Of a DNA stretch of 53,645 bases, positions 25,991 to 52,497 are shown one piece after another. Location of the stretch: the IMG/VR virus record IMGVR_UViG_3300048033_000859, positions 1-53,645 of that record. One strand, written 5' to 3'. A program made the translations under genes and the position numbers. The notes beneath the pieces were generated by a model. That model ran no database searches. It was not told the origin of the DNA and worked only from the letters and a program-made list of their open reading frames with translations. This DNA is from a virus. Lineage: Duplodnaviria > Caudoviricetes. Every line of letters starts with the position of its first letter. Within the stretch, counting starts at the first letter, position 1.

Positions 25991-27250
25991 TTAAATTAAA
26001 CTCCCAATTAGACGCTGTGAGTACTGAGAAGAATCATACAAAATAGAGACTTGAGCCGCCTTAGTTACTGCAATGTCTCTTGCTAGGTTCGACTGATCCC
26101 GTGCAGCGAATGTTTCATCACGAAAGCCCTCTGTTTCGTTCCGAAAGTATAAGGTCTCATCACGGTAAGTGAGGGCGTTATCTCTTGCTGCCTCTGCCTG
26201 TGCTAGACTTGATGCAATTCCATCTTCTGATGAACTGAGGACTTGGTTAAAGTAGGCAAGACTAAGGGCGTCTGCCAAATCGACGGGATCAGCAACATTC
26301 GAGATACGAGTGTTTTGGGCGTCTACAGGACCTGTGTGGGTGCCTGTTGAATTGCCTGACAGGTTACCTGAAACATCACCTTGATGAGAACCAATAGTTG
26401 GCCCTGTGTGTGTTCCCTGAGTATCGCCTAGTAAATCGCCTGTAAAAGTTGCTGTGACACTTACAGCGGTGATATCTGTGGCAGTAATATCGCCAAATAC
26501 AGAATCCCCAGTAGATGTAATATTCCCAGTTACGTTGCCTGTTACTGAGCCTATGAAGCTAGCATCGGTGCCATCTGTTCCGTTGTTAAGGATGAGAGTA
26601 TCATCAGGGGAGTATATATCACCTTTAAAATTACCAGTAGCATTACCAAGCAAGTTACCAAAGATGGAATGCCCATTATCTACTGGCGTAGCTGTTACAG
26701 TATCAGCCGTAATATCGGTAGCTGTAATCGCGGCTGGGGTATTAGCCCCTAACTCTCCGTCTAATGTACCAGCAACAAAGGACCCTGACAAGTATAAATT
26801 TCTAAATGGGGAACTAGATGATCCGATATCTGAGGCGGCACCGTCTGGGATTATATGTCCCTGTGGGGTGAACGCGGCAAATTCGTGCCATTGGGCAGAG
26901 CCCACAGTGTTGTCTGTGCAGATGAATACCCGACGAGTAGTCACGTTTATCCACATACTACCAACTGCATACCCATCATCTGTATCATCTAGACCATTAG
27001 GATTTTCAGTGGCAGTGGCATTATTGAGGCCACCAGAACCGCCATGTGTCGCAGGTAGGTATCCATCTACGGACCCTACAAGATTGATCTTTGGTGCATT
27101 ACCCAGAGTGCCATCGTGAGAATGACCATCAGAACCGTCAAACGCTGTTTGTATTGCGTTAAGTTCAGCATTAATTGGGGGAGCGGTAATATTCTCCCCG
27201 TTAACAATGTCGGCAATGGAACGCCGTGTATACCCAGACCCTGCAGCCAT
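25991..27250 (-). CDS. Tail fibre (proximal/adaptor) protein
   Basis: Follows the tail tubular genes; GYTR and H.HDG N-terminus, GxxxG repeats, I.NVADP...DA motif, C-terminal heptad repeats. Confidence 0.72.
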   Translation of the reverse strand: MAAGSGYTRRSIADIVNGENITAPPINAELNAIQTAFDGSDGHSHDGTLGNAPKINLVGSVDGYLPATHGGSGGLNNATATENPNGLDDTDDGYAVGSMWINVTTRRVFICTDNTVGSAQWHEFAAFTPQGHIIPDGAASDIGSSSSPFRNLYLSGSFVAGTLDGELGANTPAAITATDITADTVTATPVDNGHSIFGNLLGNATGNFKGDIYSPDDTLILNNGTDGTDASFIGSVTGNVTGNITSTGDSVFGDITATDITAVSVTATFTGDLLGDTQGTHTGPTIGSHQGDVSGNLSGNSTGTHTGPVDAQNTRISNVADPVDLADALSLAYFNQVLSSSEDGIASSLAQAEAARDNALTYRDETLYFRNETEGFRDETFAARDQSNLARDIAVTKAAQVSILYDSSQYSQRLIGSLI

Positions 27251-28920
27251 TATCTTCTCCCTGCCACGCTGAACTCAAACACCATGCCCTGAATAGAATG
27301 AGGGGCGTTGATGCCTAGAGTAACGTATGTGATTTTTGTTGCGTAACCGCTGCCCTGAATGTCAGTAGTCATAATAGGCTTTTCACTGCCCCCATAGATA
27401 ACTGCAGCGTTACCGTAGGTAATATTTCGTCCGTTATAGACAACAGGAGCACCCTTGGATTCTTCTGCGTAGGACCCAGGCTTTGCTGTATCGGTATCGT
27501 CCCAATCATAAGAGACTGAGATGTTAATTCCGATAGGTCCCTCTGCACGAATAAATGTGTTTAACTTTCTAAGGATTTTTCTGACTTCAGTATCACCGAA
27601 ATCGAAGTAAGGGGTGCTATAGACCCCTAGAATACCCTCTCCGTTGAAGGAGTTTCCCTGCTCTTGGCGATAGACGCCACCGTTATAATCGCCGTGCAAA
27701 ACGAACTCAGTGCGCCCAATATAACCTGACGCTGCACAGGATGCCCGTATACCTAGTAGTTCACCAAATTCCCATCCTAGGGTCTGGTCAGAGGTTCTAA
27801 GCCCTCCTATGATCCCTACGGAGTCCTGTGGCTGTCTTACATCGTCACCAACAAAATATCGAAGCTGAGACTTAGTCCGTATGACGCATCCCGTAAGAAG
27901 GTTGTCTAGGTCAAAATCTGTAGGCAAATCAACGAGAAGAGATTGGATAGACTTGGAAATTGTTTCCAGTTCCACATCTCCTATTCGGGAGGTTCCAGCC
28001 ACAGGACGTATGCCATCTGGGGCAAGAAATACCAAGTCACCACCGATTTCTAGGACGCTATCCTGCGCGATACACCCCACATTGGTAGTAACATTTTCAA
28101 CAGTGAATTCTTGGCTCGACCCAATGTTAAGTAGCAGAATTTTCTTAATGGCGTTTCTGCCAAATACAAACAGGTTTTCACGAAATGGTTTAAACTGTAC
28201 CGCGTCGAAGCCTACGCTTATCTGTCCTGCGTCACCGCCACCTGAGAAATTCCAGTTATAAACATCCTTAGAGTTACTGTGACACATAGTACCTAAGTTT
28301 GCCTCATCCCCTCCAAGAAACACAAAGTTTTGAAATACGTCTACGAGTGAAGGTTGTGGAAGAAGTTGGTCACCCCCAGCGTCTGCCTTTGTACCAGCTA
28401 CGCTAGTTGATGCAGTGGAGGCGGTTAGTTCTGTCCAATCTACTCCATCAAACACAATTGGCTTATTAACGCCATCCACAAAGATGATAGTGTTACCTTC
28501 ACCAAAGTTGAACGATGCATGCCTAATGCGCTCTACACTGCGTAGATTGTCAGTCATGTCACGGGTGTACCCCGTGCTTATTTGCTGCCAGCCTAGGGGG
28601 CCTGTGTTCTTATAGAACGAGTAGGTATCTGCACCCTGATCTTTTCTAGCGCAGATGGGGTAGGTAGTACCAAATTGATCATCCTTAAAGATAGCGATAC
28701 AGAGAATTTTACCCTCTGCTCCATCAGGATTGACTATTTCGTTATCTGTATCATACGGAGCAAACCCATTAATCCTACGATAGCCCCCATATAATGAAGT
28801 CTCGTAGTTAACTAATCGAGTTGCACTCCCTGGAGCGTTTTCAGCTAAATCAAGGTGGTTCTCGTTAGAATTAAGTCCACCAGCCGCAATGACTTTATAT
28901 GACTGAATTCTGTCTGCCAT
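27250..28920 (-). CDS. Tail tubular protein B (nozzle)-like
   Basis: 556 aa, beta-rich, GGLN N-terminus, VGC...S...IGGDLVFLAPDGIR; follows the adaptor gene. Confidence 0.7.
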   Translation of the reverse strand: MADRIQSYKVIAAGGLNSNENHLDLAENAPGSATRLVNYETSLYGGYRRINGFAPYDTDNEIVNPDGAEGKILCIAIFKDDQFGTTYPICARKDQGADTYSFYKNTGPLGWQQISTGYTRDMTDNLRSVERIRHASFNFGEGNTIIFVDGVNKPIVFDGVDWTELTASTASTSVAGTKADAGGDQLLPQPSLVDVFQNFVFLGGDEANLGTMCHSNSKDVYNWNFSGGGDAGQISVGFDAVQFKPFRENLFVFGRNAIKKILLLNIGSSQEFTVENVTTNVGCIAQDSVLEIGGDLVFLAPDGIRPVAGTSRIGDVELETISKSIQSLLVDLPTDFDLDNLLTGCVIRTKSQLRYFVGDDVRQPQDSVGIIGGLRTSDQTLGWEFGELLGIRASCAASGYIGRTEFVLHGDYNGGVYRQEQGNSFNGEGILGVYSTPYFDFGDTEVRKILRKLNTFIRAEGPIGINISVSYDWDDTDTAKPGSYAEESKGAPVVYNGRNITYGNAAVIYGGSEKPIMTTDIQGSGYATKITYVTLGINAPHSIQGMVFEFSVAGRR

Positions 28921-42416: not shown

Positions 42417-42476
42417 ATCACCACTGCTCTTATAGGTGACCCTACCCAATCAGCCGTTATTATTATTATTGGGAGT

Positions 42477-42505
42477 ACCCTACAGCACCATATCTGGTAT
42501 GTCAA
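42477..42505 (-). promoter_or_regulatory. Sigma70-type promoter at the head of the packaging/structural arm
   Basis: TTGACA-N17-TAGGGT. Confidence 0.55.
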
Positions 42506-42509
42506 CTCT

Positions 42510-43050
42510 TAGGGGTACTATTACAACCCCTATTACGTTTACAATCTCCACGGGACCCCTATTCTAGCCATACTACGGAGTTTACATACTAATTAATTCT
42601 GGTCCGTATCCCCCCATGCTAACCCTAGGCGGTTTACTGTCCAATTTTCCTTATTTTGTGCATAGACTGTATACGATATCGTACCCCACCCCCCATGGCG
42701 CTTGGCCCCCCCGATTTCTTTCGAGCATTGCTAACCTTCTGATTTTATTAGGGTAATTATCTTAGGAAAGATACGAGAGAGGGAAAATCTTCAGGGAATT
42801 TATAGAGAAAAGAAATGAAAGAGAATTTCTGCAGGTTTATCAAAGAATTAACCCTGTGAAACTCATAACTTTTTGGTAACAGAATAAGAAAAAAGGGCAG
42901 AGATTTTGCGTGTGACAGAAAATTTAAGTCGTGTGGTGCCGCATGGCGATGCACTCTATTAAACCTGAGATATCTCTAGGACTAATCTACAGGGATAACT
43001 AGGGGGGGTTTAACTCTTTAGGCCACTACCCTAGCCAAACTACAGGGGCT
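42510..43050. other. Largest non-coding interval; candidate physical terminus or packaging-initiation region
   Basis: No convincing ORF; palindrome TACGATATCGTA (42672-42683), C runs, IHF-like site (42732-42744), purine-skewed tract. Confidence 0.4.
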
Positions 43051-43102
43051 AGCTTGTGTGGCCCTCTCTCTGGTCTATCGGCGCGGGATATAACAGGGCA
43101 AT

Positions 43103-43130
43103 AAAAAAGACCCCCAAGAGAGGGGGCCTA
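43103..43130 (-). terminator. Repeated early-region terminator, copy 1
   Basis: TAGGCCCCC-loop-GGGGGTCTTTTTT on the minus strand. Confidence 0.85.
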
Positions 43131-43151
43131 GATATTGTTAAGGGGGAGAGT

Positions 43152-46420: not shown

Positions 46421-47227
46421 TCATCGGGGAGCACTCGCCACGGCGTCAGCTTTTTTGACGCTAATCCCATGGGCGGGAAAACCCACAATAGTCTCTCTCT
46501 TATATATGCTGCATAAACCACAGTCCTTGCAATTTGTGTCCATATAAGTTGCGGGGCAAATTGTCAGCTTGTGGCCCATCGGGGTTACAGTTGGTTTTCT
46601 CTTTTTATAATCTGCCAAGCTTTCCCCGTCCTGAATTCCCATTTTTTCAGGCAATACAGTTGCAAGAGGAATGCTAGGAAACTTACTTTTTGCGGGGCTG
46701 GCCTCCCAATTATAATATACAATCTCTGCCAATTCATCGGCATGGTCTAACCCGTTACATGAGGCGTTAATAGTTAGGCCATTCAAGTTTGCATCCATTA
46801 CAGCGTTAAAATTGTGTGTGTCTTCTATACTATAATGCGTGAACCCAAAGCCCCGCTTTCCTTTGTTAGCCTCTACTAATTCAGAGAGGGCCACAGGGTC
46901 TATTTGTTCATCATTACATTCTGCAATATTTGGCGGTAAATCCCCAACTTGATTTAATCGCCACAACTGGCCCTCTTTAATTGATAAGACAGCCCCTAGA
47001 AATGCAAGCCAAGTCCCCCCAGCTTTCCCTGCAGAAACTTTATCCCAAAATCTACGGATGTGGCCCCCGTCCCCGTAGCATCCATTTTTTTTAAATAGGC
47101 AACTATTGGGACAAGTCCCATTGTGGGAAGTTGACACAGGTATAGGCCCTGTCTTTCTGTTTCTACTTTTCATAGTCAAAGCGAAAAAACCTGTGACATT
47201 AGCGACAAAATTAATTTCATGTTTCAT
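46421..47227 (-). CDS. Cys-rich early protein (Gp88-like / radical-SAM-like Fe-S candidate)
   Basis: N.KTG, CPNSC......CY, R.N..GD, CPA....CKDCGLC...GF.AHG. Confidence 0.65.
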   Translation of the reverse strand: MKHEINFVANVTGFFALTMKSRNRKTGPIPVSTSHNGTCPNSCLFKKNGCYGDGGHIRRFWDKVSAGKAGGTWLAFLGAVLSIKEGQLWRLNQVGDLPPNIAECNDEQIDPVALSELVEANKGKRGFGFTHYSIEDTHNFNAVMDANLNGLTINASCNGLDHADELAEIVYYNWEASPAKSKFPSIPLATVLPEKMGIQDGESLADYKKRKPTVTPMGHKLTICPATYMDTNCKDCGLCSIYKRETIVGFPAHGISVKKADAVASAPR

Positions 47228-47230
47228 TGT

Positions 47231-47311
47231 GTGGTATCCTTTTAGGTTAGTGAATAAGAGCGTCTGGCCCCTATAACCCCTAGCATAGGGTCAATTAACT
47301 ACCCCTTGCAA
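47231..47311 (-). promoter_or_regulatory. Leftward early promoter plus leader motif, copy 5
   Basis: TTGCAA-N18-TATGCT (47282-47311); TTCACTAACCTAAAAGGATACCAC (47231-47254); dyad ACCCCTAGCATAGGGT over the -10 box. Confidence 0.72.
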
Positions 47312-47443
47312 GATACTTTTTTTCTGAAATTTTTTTAGATTTTTGCTTGCGCCAACAAGAGTCAGTATATAAGGTCCCTTCCATTGACCCCGCCAAAGCA
47401 AGTCTAAGTTATATATTACTCTTGACGCGCCAGTAGCTAAAAA

Positions 47444-47665
47444 TTGAAGGGACTATCAAAATTGAACTATAAAAGAACAAGAGCAGAAGTACACCAATGG
47501 ATAGAGGGCCTTCAAGAGCTACTGGAGTACGAAGATGGGACCCAACAACTAATTCTTCTAAAGTCAGGCGAACTAGTGGTCATTCCTTGTGGCGAAGAAG
47601 AGGCTGACGGGTTGAGCGTTACTATCGCTACCCACAGTGCTGACATTATTAAGCTTACAGGGTAA
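47444..47665 (+). CDS. Small hypothetical protein (start uncertain)
   Basis: 73 aa from TTG; followed by a bidirectional terminator at 47703-47740. Confidence 0.5.
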   Translation: MKGLSKLNYKRTRAEVHQWIEGLQELLEYEDGTQQLILLKSGELVVIPCGEEEADGLSVTIATHSADIIKLTG

Positions 47666-47702
47666 AGGTTACGTTATATCTTAACGCGCCAGTAATTAGA
47701 AT

Positions 47703-47815
47703 AAAAGAACCCCCCAAGGATTGCTCCGAGGGGGGTTTTTGCTGGCTAAGACAGGGAGGAAATTCACCAGCAGCATTAACAGAAGTCGGGGTGGGTCATT
47801 AGCAACCTCTGTTAT
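47703..47815 (-). ncRNA. Candidate small RNA C with three hairpins and an anti-SD loop
   Basis: Promoter TTGACC-N17-TAAGAT (47820-47848); 11-bp stem with a C-rich loop; stem with TTTCCTCCCTG loop; terminator with GCAA loop. G-U pairs only work on the minus strand. Confidence 0.7.
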
Positions 47816-47872
47816 ACATATCTTACACAAGGTCTACACAGTGGTCAACTACTAATTGTGTATCAAAAGGTC

Positions 47873-47901
47873 TTGCTTATACCCCTAACATAGGGTATTT
47901 A
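47873..47901 (+). promoter_or_regulatory. Putative integrase promoter containing an operator-like dyad
   Basis: TTGCTT-N17-TATTTA; ACCCCTAACATAGGGT at 47881-47896. Confidence 0.45.
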
Positions 47902-47933
47902 CTCTGATACTGATAACCTTGGAGGATATAAGA

Positions 47934-49046
47934 ATGGGAAATATGTTAGCACCGTACATTCAAGTGTACAAAAAGAAGGGGAAATCTGAGTACAGGTTTC
48001 AACCAAAGAAAGACATGCGGATAGCCTTGGGAGTGCATGGATTTACAATGCATGATGAACAAGAGGCTCTAGCGTATAGCGCAACCGTTCAACAACTGTA
48101 TTACGACTACAGTCGCAAGAAAAAGAACGCTATTGCGATCAACGAAAGGACTTTGTCTGGCCTTGTTCATTGGTTTTATCAGACCAGTGAGTTCAAAGAG
48201 CGTAAGCCTAACACGCAGAAGAGCTATAAGGAGCAGCTAGGTCTGATATGTAAGGTCACCCTGCCGCGCAGTAAGACCCCTCTAGGTGCTTTGATGGTAT
48301 CCACGATGGATCGGGAGAGGGCTGACGCTTTAAAACAGTTCTTGACAGAGCACTACTCATATCACCGAGCTTATATGTGCATAAAGACAATTCGTCGGTT
48401 GTTCTACGTTGGCAGCGTTTATGGGAAGGGCATCAAGTTTAACCCGTTTGCAAAGATGGACCTGAAAACACCCGCTAGTCGCAAGGAACGCTGGGAGCAG
48501 GGCGACATCTATCGTTTTATAGATAAGTCTGACGAACTAGGGTTTCACGGTTTAGGTACACTAGCTCTAGCTTGTTATGATTTAGCTCAGAGGCCTGGAG
48601 ATATACGCCAACTGACTTGGGAAAATGTTGTAGGCAATCGATTGATCTTCACCCAAGAGAAGACCGAGCAGCCTATGAATGTTGTTATGAGCGACGAACT
48701 AGTAAAACGCTTATCAACAATCAAACGTGTCAACAGTACCAACAGGATTGTGTACCATGTAGACCCACGAAATAAAAAAATCTGTGAGTATGATAACAGA
48801 AATTACAATTGCCACCGCAAGTTAGTTTTAGAGGCACTGAACCTCCCAGAGAAATTACAACTACGGGACCTTCGTAGAACTGCAGCGTCCGAGATGGCTA
48901 ACGCTTCTTGCACCGATGATGAAATCCGAGAGGTCACTGGACACAAGACCCGTGACGTTCTGTCTATCTACCTAGTTCAAGATGGAACTGCAGGGGACAA
49001 CGCCCAAGATAAACGGAGGCAGAAGTATGGACAAAAAGGTGCCTAG
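47934..49046 (+). CDS. int: Tyrosine integrase
   Basis: Catalytic pattern QRPGD (R), QEKT (K), RDLRRT, TGH and Y; GGAGG RBS before ATG 47934. Confidence 0.93.
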   Translation: MGNMLAPYIQVYKKKGKSEYRFQPKKDMRIALGVHGFTMHDEQEALAYSATVQQLYYDYSRKKKNAIAINERTLSGLVHWFYQTSEFKERKPNTQKSYKEQLGLICKVTLPRSKTPLGALMVSTMDRERADALKQFLTEHYSYHRAYMCIKTIRRLFYVGSVYGKGIKFNPFAKMDLKTPASRKERWEQGDIYRFIDKSDELGFHGLGTLALACYDLAQRPGDIRQLTWENVVGNRLIFTQEKTEQPMNVVMSDELVKRLSTIKRVNSTNRIVYHVDPRNKKICEYDNRNYNCHRKLVLEALNLPEKLQLRDLRRTAASEMANASCTDDEIREVTGHKTRDVLSIYLVQDGTAGDNAQDKRRQKYGQKGA

Positions 49047-49184: not shown

Positions 49185-49859
49185 ATGGATTACTCAGCTA
49201 AAATCGTAGGCAAGACTATGCCCTTCAATATTGATGCAGACAACATGGAGGAGCTAATTGCATATGCAGCGAGGGTGTCTAACCCATCAAACCAATCTAA
49301 CCATGATACTGCACAGAAGCTTCTAGCCTACTGCGTCAAACATAAACATTGGAGTGTGTTTGAGACTGCTAACTTCGTAGTCGAAATTAAGGCACCTAGA
49401 GATATTACGCGCCAGTTGTTGAGACACAGAAGTTTTACGTTTCAGGAATTCTCTCAGAGGTACTCAGACGAAATACAGTGGACCGAAAGGGAGTTCCGTA
49501 GGCAGGACACTAAGAACCGTCAAAACAGTCTAGATAACTTCGATAAGGAGACACAAGAGTACCTACAGAGGTTGTGCAGAAATCACATTGAGAACAGCCA
49601 AAGACTGTACAAAAAGCTCAGGTCCTTGGGGGTTGCAAAAGAGTGCTGCAGAGGGGTCCTACCAGAGGGCTATGCCATGTCCACCATGTATGTGAATGGT
49701 ACAGTAAGATCGTGGCTACACTACCTAGACGTTAGGGATGATGAAGGGGTGACCCAGTTAGAGCACGTTCAGCTAGCCCGTGCGATAAAAGATTCGCTAG
49801 CTGCAGAGCTACCCCAAATCATGCAAGTTTGGGAAACTAACAGAAACGAAATGAAATGA
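49185..49859 (+). CDS. thyX: FAD-dependent thymidylate synthase
   Basis: ARVS, HWSVFE, RQLLRHRSF.FQEFSQRY, RSW.HY...R, Q.EH motifs. Confidence 0.96.
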   Translation: MDYSAKIVGKTMPFNIDADNMEELIAYAARVSNPSNQSNHDTAQKLLAYCVKHKHWSVFETANFVVEIKAPRDITRQLLRHRSFTFQEFSQRYSDEIQWTEREFRRQDTKNRQNSLDNFDKETQEYLQRLCRNHIENSQRLYKKLRSLGVAKECCRGVLPEGYAMSTMYVNGTVRSWLHYLDVRDDEGVTQLEHVQLARAIKDSLAAELPQIMQVWETNRNEMK

Positions 49860-49890
49860 GTATTGCTAACCCATTGATTTACTTAGATTT

Positions 49891-49928
49891 TGGTTGCGGG
49901 AGTAGGATTTGAACCTACGACCTTCAGG
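49891..49928 (-). mobile_element. attP core: 38-bp copy of the 3' half of an initiator tRNA-Met
   Basis: Reverse complement CCTGAAGGTCGTAGGTTCAAATCCTACTCCCGCAACCA has the T arm, acceptor strand and CCA; 5' half and anticodon absent; adjacent IHF consensus AATCAATGGGTTA (49867-49879, minus). Confidence 0.88.
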
Positions 49929-50063
49929 GTCTAAGTAGCACTTTATAAAACAACAACGTATGGTGGGGGTATTTCTGATACCCCTACCTTTTTTTTATTT
50001 AGGGGCTAGACAGATGCCCCATCAATATGTACCCTAAACCCTGTTGTGACAGGGGTTATATAT

Positions 50064-50846
50064 ATGAGTTACTATCAGGATCAGTTAAGTACTATCAGTA
50101 ACTATAGGGTCAACTCAGGAGAAACTATAAGGGTTAACTGTCCGTTCTGTGGTGGTAACAAAACCATGAGTATTACCCAGATCGATGGTAACCTTAAATG
50201 GAACTGCTATAAAGCTTCATGTGGCTCCCGTGGAATAAATAATGTGGGTAGAAATATTCTTGAAATACGGAATGCTCTAAACGGCATTAAAAACGTACAG
50301 AAACGTAAAACTTCAGACATTCCAGAAATATTATCATCGCCGCTACTGCGTGAGGATACCTACAATTACCTTCTAGAAAATAATTGCCTTCAAGCATATC
50401 TAGATGGTGCTTGCAGAATAGAATACAGCCCCAAAGAACACAGAGTATTGTTCTTCAATTCTGATAGTAGTGGATGTGTCGGTAGATCACTAAAAACGAG
50501 ACTGAAACCTAAGTGGAAGGTTTACGGTGAGACTACAAACTTATTTACAGTGGGGCATTGTGATCCCGTAGTTTTAGTTGAAGATGCGGCATCCGCCTGT
50601 GCGGTTTATGCCACGAAGAAATACACTGGGGTGGCTTTGTTAGGAACAAATCTGTCGTACAAACAGAGAACATCCTTAAAACAGAGAGATAATATCACAA
50701 TCGCCCTTGACAAGGACGCCTCAAGGAAGGCACTACAAGTAGCGGCACAACTAAGAGGGGGAAGAAAGTGTGCTGTAAGGTTCCTTGCAAGGGACCTCAA
50801 GGAGTATCCCCCAGAAAGGTTATTAAGGGTGATTGAAGATGGGTAA
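50064..50846 (+). CDS. DNA primase (zinc finger plus TOPRIM)
   Basis: CPFC...WNCYKASC; VLVED..SA, ALLGT, ALDKDA. Confidence 0.9.
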   Translation: MSYYQDQLSTISNYRVNSGETIRVNCPFCGGNKTMSITQIDGNLKWNCYKASCGSRGINNVGRNILEIRNALNGIKNVQKRKTSDIPEILSSPLLREDTYNYLLENNCLQAYLDGACRIEYSPKEHRVLFFNSDSSGCVGRSLKTRLKPKWKVYGETTNLFTVGHCDPVVLVEDAASACAVYATKKYTGVALLGTNLSYKQRTSLKQRDNITIALDKDASRKALQVAAQLRGGRKCAVRFLARDLKEYPPERLLRVIEDG

Positions 50847-51276: not shown

Positions 51277-52497
51277 ATGGATACCACAATATTAAAGAAG
51301 ATTCTGAACAACGAATTCTACGAGTCTAACAAGGCCAGACTCAATCCTAAACTTTTCGAGCATGAAGCGCGTGACGTTTTTCTTACAATCAAACAGGCGC
51401 AGGAGTCCTATGAAAAGGACTTAACAATCTCAGAAGTAGTATCTCTGTATGATGCAAACAATCCTACGAGCACTAGGTCTCAGAAGGATGAAGTAATTCA
51501 GTTTCTATCTGATGTAGCCGCCGAGTCTGAAATTTCAGATGATATCGCCAATGACATTATTGTTAAGTTAGACCAGCGTTATGTTGCGCAGGTCATAGCA
51601 GACAAAGCTGCCTCCATTTCACTTGGAGAGAGTGATGGATGGGAAGAGCTAGTTAATCTTGTAGACGAATATCGTGATGGGTTTGGTAAAGACGAACTAA
51701 TAGATTTTGAAACGGCAGACGTTTATCAGATAATTGAAACTCTTTCCGATAAACAACGCTTCAAGTTTAACCTGCCCACACTTAACAAGAAAGTGTATGG
51801 CATCGGGCGTCAGGAATTCGGTGCAGTATTTGCCAATACAAATGTTGGTAAGTCTGCATTTATGATCAGCCTATGTTTTGGGCCTGATGGATTTGTAGAT
51901 CAAGGTTTACGGGTTCTGTTCGTATGTAACGAAGAGCAAGCCATCCGCACCAGACAACGTGCAATGTCAGCCTTTTCAGGCATGTCCAAGGATGAAATGA
52001 TACTGGACCCTGAGAGTGCAGCTATACACTGGAACAAAGTTAATCATTTGGCTTTCTTCAAAGATTGCCAAGACCTGATGCTACCTGAGATTGAGAGTAT
52101 TATAAGTAAGGTTGGTTTCGATGTAGTCGTTTTTGACCAGCTCGACAAAGTTCACATTGCTGGAAAATTTAATGCTTCCCATGAGAAATTTGGGGAGCTG
52201 TACAGGCAAACCCGTGAGGTTGCCAAGAGAACCAACACAGCGGTCTTTGGTGTTACCCAAGCTAGTGCAGACGCCAGAGACAGTACTGTAGTAAGCCACT
52301 TCGATATGTCTGGTAGTAAGGTTCACAAGGCGGCTGAGTTAGATTTAGCAATCGGAATAGGCGCGAGGGAACAGAAAGATGCCCAAGCCGAGCCTGATTT
52401 CACACGCTGGATAAATATAAGCAAAAACAAACTTAACGGATGGCACGGGACAGTTGTGTGCATGCTCGACCAGAAGGCGAACCGCTATGTTGTATAA
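51277..52497 (+). CDS. SF4 (DnaB/T7 gp4-like) replicative helicase
   Basis: ANTNVGKS Walker A, NEE, FDQLD, TQAS, GS...KAAE.D, KNK..G.HG. Confidence 0.92.
   Translation: MDTTILKKILNNEFYESNKARLNPKLFEHEARDVFLTIKQAQESYEKDLTISEVVSLYDANNPTSTRSQKDEVIQFLSDVAAESEISDDIANDIIVKLDQRYVAQVIADKAASISLGESDGWEELVNLVDEYRDGFGKDELIDFETADVYQIIETLSDKQRFKFNLPTLNKKVYGIGRQEFGAVFANTNVGKSAFMISLCFGPDGFVDQGLRVLFVCNEEQAIRTRQRAMSAFSGMSKDEMILDPESAAIHWNKVNHLAFFKDCQDLMLPEIESIISKVGFDVVVFDQLDKVHIAGKFNASHEKFGELYRQTREVAKRTNTAVFGVTQASADARDSTVVSHFDMSGSKVHKAAELDLAIGIGAREQKDAQAEPDFTRWINISKNKLNGWHGTVVCMLDQKANRYVV

Follow-up and report, generated by a model that had tools for sequence, protein, structure and literature searches.

Genomic setting and predicted structure of the unit

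Virus record IMGVR_UViG_3300048033_000859 of IMG/VR (53,645 bases, 100% complete according to CheckV; the whole record is called the window throughout) carries a putative small RNA (sRNA) gene in its lysogeny corner, where a small open reading frame (ORF), the sRNA unit, the integrase gene (int), thyX and the phage attachment site (attP) follow one another in this order. The unit occupies the minus strand between a convergent small ORF (47444-47665, plus strand) and a divergent gene for a tyrosine integrase (47919-49046, plus strand). Judged from its sequence, the phage is a temperate HMO-2011-type marine podovirus and thus belongs to a viral group described as dominant and widely distributed in the sea (PMC9038755, in the part available). 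Its integrase is 32-36% identical to those of the Roseobacter phages CRP-212, CRP-235 and CRP-3, and less similar to those of HMO-2011 and the remaining CRP phages. A preliminary description of this DNA had proposed that the phage encodes a small RNA unit with boundaries of its own, transcribed away from the integrase gene, and the analyses reported here support that proposal.

On the minus strand, a sigma-70-like promoter of the form TTGACC-N17-TAAGAT lies at 47820-47848 (-35 box at 47848-47843, -10 box at 47825-47820) and matches the consensus at nine of 12 positions. Both hexamers and the 17-nucleotide (nt) spacer are present as previously described, but the extended -10 element that had been assigned to this promoter is not, as the TG abuts the TAAGAT hexamer directly and is out of the extended -10 register. 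The predicted transcript spans ~110 nt (47703-47813, minus strand), its 5' end being placed by the -10 box and its 3' end by the U tract. In the predicted fold, hairpin 1 (47777-47814, minus strand) consists of a 12-bp stem and a 14-nt loop, CUAAUGACCCACCC, with the motif CCCACCC. Hairpin 2 (47740-47772, minus strand) has a 7-bp stem (UGCUGGU/GCCAGCA) and a 19-nt loop, GAAUUUCCUCCCUGUCUUA, which contains AAUUUCCUCCCUGU and presents the conserved 9-mer CCUCCCUGU (47751-47759, minus strand; a single exact copy in the window), referred to below as the seed. A G+C-rich intrinsic terminator followed by UUCUUUU closes the unit (47703-47737, minus strand).

The two loop-bearing hairpins and the terminator of the preliminary description are all recovered in the fold of 47815-47703 (113 nt, minus strand), which has a minimum free energy of -43.0 kcal/mol (z = -4.5) that none of 200 shuffled sequences attained. 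The plus strand of the same region gave z = -1.95, and 8 of its 200 shuffled sequences folded equally well, a difference that agrees with the earlier contention that wobble pairs fix the strand. Within this fold the CCUCCCU of the window has a probability of being unpaired of 0.95, the highest of 108 heptamers, in line with the exposed anti-Shine-Dalgarno loop that had been suggested. Terminator-like sites were called on both strands at 47710-47736, and T runs flank the hairpin in both directions, so that this bidirectional hairpin can also end the convergent ORF at 47444-47665. The complement of loop 1, GGGGUGGG, occurs at 42684-42692, and the number of such matches is at the level of chance (11 found vs. 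9.1 expected).

The region had been described as free of ORFs, which is essentially right: it contains no convincing ORF, although two ORFs of 44 amino acids overlap it in the mechanical list. The one on the minus strand begins upstream of the -10 box. An internal AUG opens a frame of ~26 codons that has no Shine-Dalgarno sequence and, in a comparison by eye with CRP-235 only, no counterpart in that phage.

Conservation of the seed in related phages

The records of CRP-3, CRP-212 and CRP-235 open with gp01, and the integrase follows ~250 nt later. In all three, the gap between the two genes holds a TTGnnn/TAnnnT pair, CCUCCCUGU and a G+C-rich terminator on the strand opposite int. A profile of four integrases retrieved 80 further loci from IMG/VR, in which the integrase as a single-protein query had no match. 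We counted the 66 of these loci that have at least 400 nt upstream of the integrase match, and sought the motif within 600 nt. The exact 9-mer CCUCCCUGU is present in 30 of the 66 on the strand opposite int and in none on the int strand; its core CCUCCC is found in 46 on the sRNA strand vs. 6 on the other. The integrases of the relatives that bear the 9-mer are just 29-46% identical to that of the window. Inspected by eye, with no formal count, most loci that lack the 9-mer show variant C-rich units before a terminator, with the motifs CCUCCUCCC, CUCCCUG, CCUCCCCCCUG or CUCUCCU.

The 9-mer is embedded in 20 distinct sequence contexts. Seven unrelated stems place it in a hairpin loop, among them GUAGAC/GUCUAC, GUAGG/CCUAC, GCACGG/CCGUGC, CAGUACA/UGUACUG, AGAAGCAC/GUGCUUCU and the UGCUGGU/GCCAGCA of the window, and in the remaining contexts (CRP-3, CRP-212, L031 and L015 types) two hairpins flank it and leave it unpaired. 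In 22 representatives the mean probability of the motif being unpaired is 0.88, compared with per-sequence heptamer means of 0.36-0.56. Stems of several relatives contain G-U pairs that are compatible with the sRNA strand alone. Helix tests on single sequences, for which the flanks were shuffled, are individually modest (p from 0.001 to 0.98). Promoter-like boxes are a recurrent companion of the motif: TTGnnn-N16-18-TAnnnT ending 5-65 nt upstream of it was found in 25 of 30 distinct relatives, whereas shuffles had it in 3.7 on average and in no more than 10. The opposite strand of the same 100 nt has a promoter-like box in 15 of the 30, presumably the int promoter.

An invariant, accessible word on a changing scaffold, bounded by promoter and terminator and confined to one strand, is by its sequence pattern the signature of a trans-acting seed. 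The features generally expected of trans-acting sRNAs are likewise found here, i.e., an own promoter and terminator, no conserved ORF, an accessible conserved seed and a variable scaffold. On these comparisons, the putative sRNA is a member of a family that has no earlier description and occurs widely among those HMO-2011-type phages that have an integrase. The preliminary description had expected loops and stems to be conserved in relatives. The C-rich loop motif and its unpaired state are indeed kept, while the stems change, which leaves the proposed sRNA standing. The first loop is not conserved, as its 16-mer has no match elsewhere in IMG/VR. The window's own copy stands apart in other respects as well: a search with seed plus C-run returned two unrelated chance matches only, blastn of 47400-48000 against phage records returned none, and its sRNA has no close relative. 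Second copies of CCUCCCUG in CRP-3, CRP-235 and G004 fall in ORFs and are therefore taken as chance. Among 185,579 species genomes, the integrase profile found one locus, on a 2.3-kb contig of an alphaproteobacterial metagenome-assembled genome (G015), and this contig carries a variant unit with the loop UUUCCCUCAUU.

As a separate observation, the units of L016, L017, L052 and L090 have an extra small hairpin with the loop UUGCUAG, the stem of which covaries among relatives (CUUCA/UGAAG vs. CCUCA/UGAGG). Loop 1 of the window (47795-47804, minus strand) begins with the similar UUGCUAAUGA.

The tail-fibre ribosome-binding site as a candidate target

A candidate target within the phage genome is GGCAGGGAGAAGAU (27252-27265, minus strand). 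It lies over the Shine-Dalgarno sequence of a tail-fibre gene (25991-27250, minus strand; weak PHROG tail-fibre and Pfam T7 tail-fibre N-terminal matches) and within the last codons of the upstream gene, which encodes a protein of 556 amino acids (27250-28920, minus strand). We refer to this protein as the nozzle on account of its position between the adaptor and the tail-fibre gene; its sole named family match is PHROG 'amidase', and Pfam gave none. The predicted pairing with GGCAGGGAGAAGAU covers 2 to 15 nt before the AUG and comprises 13 pairs, interrupted by one mismatch. Outside the seed itself, the window contains no perfect complement of the seed; the 7-mer CAGGGAG is found 6 nt ahead of the tail-fibre AUG.

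This arrangement recurs in related phages. CAGGGAG with an ATG 3-12 nt on occurs exactly once each in CRP-212, CRP-3, CRP-235, G001, G002 and G004, always, as in the window, at the homologous nozzle/tail-fibre junction, where the nozzle ends with (A/S)GRR and the fibre begins with MAGYTRQS or a near variant; the reversed pattern gave one match in the first five records. Among the 7-mers complementary to the extended seed before start codons, it is the sole site recurring across five lineages, and CRP-738 has none. We also ranked duplexes between each phage's own 16-nt seed and every ATG, GTG or TTG that opens at least 60 codons. The tail-fibre site came first of 810 starts in the window (-18.4 kcal/mol), second of 1109 in CRP-3, third of 984 in CRP-235 and fourth of 1025 in CRP-212; with the reversed seed as control the ranks were 30, 60, 7 and 36, respectively. 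The UG that follows CCUCCC is a part of the seed peculiar to this clade of phages; its partner is the CA in an Ala/Ser codon, the C of which is fixed by the protein. CRP-738, HMO-2011, MW202701 and G013, all of which are without the int-adjacent unit, have other codons and another Shine-Dalgarno sequence at the junction.

Constraint on the junction was assessed in 60 distinct junctions from 80 further IMG/VR loci (L170-L249). Codon -4 ends in a purine in 58 of the 60 vs. a background of 43%, GGG is present in 48 (background 12%) and AGA in 50 (background 22%), and of the 79 loci that extend as far as the stop, 48 have CAGGGAG. The last nozzle codons double as the tail-fibre Shine-Dalgarno sequence (27248-27275 of the window, minus strand) and are under strong synonymous-site constraint; the nozzle stop often overlaps the fibre start (TAATG). 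These counts clearly point to selection on the junction site CAGGGAGA at the RNA level. As for linkage between seed variants and the tail-fibre gene, nine of the ten long IMG/VR contigs tested lacked the gene upstream of the tail-fibre gene.

From these sequence matches we propose the tail-fibre gene as a target of the sRNA, but only tentatively. Because the UGU extension of the seed matches the tail-fibre site in four lineages, self-regulation by the phage is at least as well supported as the mimicry of host RNAs considered below.

Proposed mode of action and its significance

The reading that we favour, with moderate confidence, is that the unit is a real phage sRNA gene whose seed occludes ribosome-binding sites, with the tail-fibre gene as its best candidate target and host mRNAs as a second class. 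Host RNA polymerase would start at TTGACC/TAAGAT and stop at the terminator, giving an RNA of ~110 nt whose role would be to keep the C-rich seed (U)UUCCUCCCUGU single-stranded within the hairpin 2 loop. By pairing with Shine-Dalgarno regions that are rich in purines, such as CAGGGAG(G), this seed would occlude the ribosome-binding site and thereby lower translation of the target. The best specific target would be the phage's own tail-fibre gene via GGCAGGGAGAAGAU, and a second, non-exclusive class could be formed by host mRNAs like those that the alpha-r8 and ar14 RNAs of alphaproteobacteria regulate. This anti-Shine-Dalgarno mechanism is suggested by the anatomy of the unit and by analogy with known RNAs, in light of which the C-rich loop probably blocks ribosome-binding sites.

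Small RNAs of immunity or lysogeny regions that pair with mRNAs of their own phage include c4 of P1/P7, the CI RNA of P4, sar of P22 and OOP of lambda, c4 pairing at a ribosome-binding site. The putative sRNA is like them in coming from a lysogeny region and unlike them in its candidate target, which is a late structural gene and not an antirepressor or early gene. One conceivable, though rather speculative, role is therefore that of a virion riboregulator from the lysogeny corner, which would keep fibre translation low in lysogens or early in infection until late mRNA outnumbers it, and whose host-borrowed seed could also tap a host regulon.

Several observations weigh against our reading. 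The tail-fibre site leaves the first C and the last U of the 9-mer unused, and a duplex scan with the whole 24-nt loop gave many loose matches, with the tail-fibre site outside the top 15. G004 has kept the site intact but has CCUCCUCCC as its seed, with which the site comes only 91st and 319th of 963; in CRP-738 the tail-fibre Shine-Dalgarno sequence GGGAAGG mismatches that phage's own C-rich motif. The RNA-level constraint on CAGGGAGA is accounted for equally well by pairing with 16S rRNA. As the site lies inside the upstream ORF, with its TAATG overlap, translating ribosomes could strip the sRNA from it, and because seed and site are both inherited, the four ranks given above are not independent. 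The promoter, too, is inconspicuous in the window: 46900-48300 contains one promoter-like site vs. 2.5 +/- 1.8 in shuffles, and when the 95 nt upstream are shuffled, 16.5% of the resulting sequences have a match at nine of 12 positions, simple 12-position promoter scoring being unable to separate AT-rich regions from shuffles. Finally, the scaffolds do not align: MAFFT alignments of hairpins and of whole units leave the stems out of register.

For the lysis-lysogeny behaviour of HMO-2011-type phages, a conserved sRNA next to int would offer a first regulatory handle. If the tail-fibre target is true, an RNA of the lysogeny module would exert an unusual control over a structural gene; if the seed acts on host mRNAs, a virus would be copying a widespread alphaproteobacterial sRNA seed. 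Either way, the combination of seed and terminator beside int could serve as an annotation signature for phage contigs from metagenomes. A literature search found no paper on an sRNA in these phages, most subscription journals being outside its coverage, and term searches of two genome papers on these phages showed no mention of non-coding RNA, of promoters or of elements between genes.

Comparison with known RNA families and the case for host mimicry

A scan of the whole window at Rfam gathering scores returned no family, and neither the window nor the loci of 19 relatives contained one at cut-off; scans by E-value gave sub-threshold matches only. The Infernal/Rfam comparison called for in the preliminary description thus yields no family membership. 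Its best match is ar14/cuckoo (RF02344), with 21.0 bits and E = 0.023 on a 141-nt slice, compared with a gathering score of 58.8. The likeness to alphaproteobacterial C-rich sRNAs that had been noted from the sequence is nevertheless borne out hairpin for hairpin: the cmscan alignment runs through hairpin, hairpin and terminator and spans the whole model and the whole unit. As in ar14/cuckoo RNAs (RSs0680/CcsR, SmrC14), an intrinsic terminator comes after two adjacent hairpins with C-rich anti-Shine-Dalgarno loops, and variable stems go together with a conserved loop motif. Cuckoo RNAs are defined in the available part of PMC4615179 by two to four adjacent hairpins, each with CCUCCUCCC in its loop. 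Neither CUAAUGACCCACCC nor GAAUUUCCUCCCUGUCUUA, the loops of the window, holds this motif; CCUCCC is present in loop 2 only, loop 1 having CCCACCC, and in most phage relatives there is just one seed hairpin, or the seed is unpaired with a hairpin on either side. The same source describes a conserved chromosomal neighbourhood for cuckoo RNAs, with CIN1 beside the orthologous gene OG1 (PMC4615179), whereas the unit of the window is phage-encoded and its neighbours are phage genes (no search for OG1 was made).

In the alpha-r8 RNAs (MmgR, SisA-D), UUUCCUCCCU is a single-stranded anti-Shine-Dalgarno core beside a Rho-independent terminator, and SisA represses many targets via this seed, according to the part of PMC12559287 available. 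The window contains the exact 10-mer UUUCCUCCCU at 47753-47762 (minus strand; seed plus 5' flank), unpaired and upstream of a Rho-independent terminator as in the alpha-r8 family (MmgR, SuhB, SisA-D; RF00519). Most relatives keep just 8-9 of its ten bases. With RF00519 (cut-off 41 bits) there was no match in the window at E <= 10 and none in the loci of 15 relatives at E <= 1, and the unit of CRP-212 scored a weak 20.3 bits. In 25 host alpha-r8 genes the seed comes shortly after a weak hairpin, and the AAACUUGGGCC next to it runs on into the terminator; the seed of the window, in contrast, lies in a 19-nt loop preceded by a strong 12-bp hairpin, and GUCUUAGCC comes after it.

More distant resemblances concern the unit of L061 and ErsA/Pseudomon-1 (RF01719; 30.1 bits, cut-off 50), and the units of CRP-212 and CRP-3 and anti-hemB (RF02837; 22.5 and 21.9 bits, cut-off 49.5). 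ErsA, anti-hemB and RNAIII, the latter cited as a C-rich anti-Shine-Dalgarno RNA in the available part of PMC4615179, share with the phage units an exposed C-rich seed ahead of a terminator. Since the ErsA and anti-hemB scores are below the cut-offs and the hosts are unrelated, this resemblance is one of design and not of demonstrated descent. By analogy, the phage units resemble the alpha-r8 and ar14 families in working design, yet they reach the threshold of no family.

These resemblances lead to the alternative that the sRNA is a pure host mimic, which copies the seed of alpha-r8 or ar14/cuckoo and acts only on host mRNAs (e.g., of transporters or carbon metabolism), so that the cell is reprogrammed in infection or lysogeny and the tail-fibre match is a by-product of likeness to Shine-Dalgarno sequences. 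We consider this unlikely, although both the exact alpha-r8 10-mer in the window and the ar14-like architecture speak for it. The alpha-r8 regulon is widespread, RF00519 being above cut-off in 43 of 101 sampled alphaproteobacterial genomes, and the CCUCCC core is present even in relatives whose seed misfits the tail-fibre site. Cultured HMO-2011-type relatives infect RCA roseobacters (Rhodobacteraceae) and SAR116, and cuckoo RNAs are reported to be abundant in Rhodobacteraceae (PMC4615179, in part). However, the continuation of the seed differs between phages and hosts. The GU after the seed core is invariant in 30 of 30 phages and is never found in the 25 host alpha-r8 genes examined, all of which continue with AAACUUGGGCC or a near variant (AA, AG or similar, then ACUUGGGCC); this points to a target specific to the phage clade. 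The sub-threshold Rfam scores are a further point against a pure host mimic.

The preliminary description had also suggested a specific host target such as a receptor or a transporter. The sole host-side pattern search gave no recurrent gene: ACAGGGAGG 3-10 nt before an ATG matched in 19 of 41 genomes of the family of G015, a candidate host family that may not be that of the host, and the 12 loci examined had no gene in common. Altogether 32 sites were listed vs. 1 for the reversed pattern, a control that is unfair in that any Shine-Dalgarno-like pattern is enriched. Host targets akin to the alpha-r8 and cuckoo regulons nevertheless remain plausible by analogy, and under our favoured reading they would accompany the tail-fibre gene as a second class.

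Cis-acting elements, DNA sites and chance

Alternatively, the unit could be a cis element that tunes int or gp01 by promoter interference or as antisense to plus-strand read-through, the motif being incidental or a protein site. Its position between convergent and divergent lysogeny genes, with a bidirectional terminator shared with the plus-strand ORF, would suit such a function, as would the conserved box ACTGGCRCGTYAAG (TTGACG-type -35, plus strand) beside the unit in the window and in relatives. We regard this as improbable, since cis-antisense needs no invariant 9-mer and everything but the 9-mer and its unpaired state diverges. Moreover, the plus-strand ORF of CRP-3, CRP-212 and CRP-235 has its own terminator, and the transcripts need not overlap in these phages.

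The box itself forms a direct repeat that flanks the small plus-strand ORF of the window (47421-47434 and 47680-47693, both minus strand). It is also found in CRP-3, CRP-212, CRP-235 and most IMG/VR relatives, is -35-like with a conserved extension on the plus strand, and in L016, L029 and L090 has one copy just upstream of the sRNA promoter, facing the integrase. ACTGGCRCGTYAAG may represent a phage promoter class or an operator.

A DNA-level site, with the 9-mer as attP core, integrase arm site or operator and the hairpins as inverted-repeat binding sites, appears very improbable and is largely refuted. The unit does adjoin the integrase with a short invariant motif between inverted repeats, and CRP-3 is reported to integrate into tRNA-Met(CAT), with a core that overlaps that tRNA's 3' end (PMC6918029, in part). 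The corresponding attP core of the window, the 3' part of a tRNA-Met(CAT) gene, lies elsewhere, at 49888-49928 (minus strand) between thyX (49185-49859) and a primase gene (50046-50846), i.e., 2.1 kb from the sRNA unit, a distance too great for arm sites. The T-arm, the acceptor strand and the CCA occupy ~49886-49923 (minus strand), and a tRNA-Met fragment is found at the same place in CRP-3, CRP-212, CRP-235 and G004. The Rfam tRNA model gives the T-arm of the window 15.7 bits, which is below cut-off. Against the metagenome-assembled genome G015, 49888-49928 aligns over 41 nt at 98%, a figure also given by tRNA-Met of several alphaproteobacterial genomes, and it has matches in 46 of 61 sampled alphaproteobacterial genomes, at three of which places ARAGORN calls a tRNA-Met(CAT). 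The 701 nt of intergenic DNA searched for attB-like matches gave AT-rich chance matches only in 401 alphaproteobacterial genomes (best E = 7e-4). The strand asymmetry of 30 vs. 0 loci and the G-U pairs likewise favour an RNA over a DNA site. The unit at 47703-47848 was accordingly rejected as the attP core, which falls outside it. Integration would leave the sRNA gene, int and thyX at one prophage end. At the position of attP, CRP-738 carries another tRNA-like 3' fragment.

It is scarcely credible that the unit amounts to just a bidirectional terminator plus hairpins and a promoter match that are due to chance: the promoter match is non-significant in the window alone and the window's own sRNA has no close homologue in IMG/VR, but the fold z of -4.5 contradicts chance hairpins, and lineages with integrases just 29-46% identical to that of the window keep the 9-mer at a fixed place and on one strand.

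Further features of the genome and its relatives

Apart from the integrase, the genome encodes ThyX, a Toprim primase, a DnaB-like helicase, a ribonucleotide reductase, PhoH and a family-A DNA polymerase that carries a DnaJ-type insert. The structural block is on the minus strand and comprises genes for the major head protein, the adaptor, the 556-amino-acid protein and tail fibres. A tRNA search of the whole window called none. The small ORF at 47444-47665 has no Pfam or PHROG family and is a weak homologue of gp01 of CRP-212 and CRP-3 (21-26% identity). The integrase most likely starts at the ATG at 47934, 8 nt past a GGAGG (47921-47925), and the listed TTG at 47919 is probably wrong.

In CRP-738 (L254), a C-rich motif, CCCUCCCCAACUGGCC, and a terminator follow directly after the gp62 stop (51840-51883 of that record, minus strand). 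This module looks like the 3' half of units of the L038 and L061 types and may be an sRNA derived from a 3' untranslated region. Matches to type II hammerhead ribozymes occur between minus-strand genes of relatives, at 1121-1192 and 470-545 of L004 (CRP-3) and at 145-208 of L049 (all minus strand). Their scores are 37.2 (at the cut-off of 37), 32.9 and 29.9 bits, and the window has none at gathering score. In the middle of the minus-strand gene block of the window, 42450-43150 (minus strand) belongs to a stretch of ~700-900 nt with no long ORF. It contains G runs (G7, G6-T-G4 and G6) with which a quadruplex is possible, C runs, and a terminator-like hairpin near 43110-43135, and could be an origin or a regulatory region.

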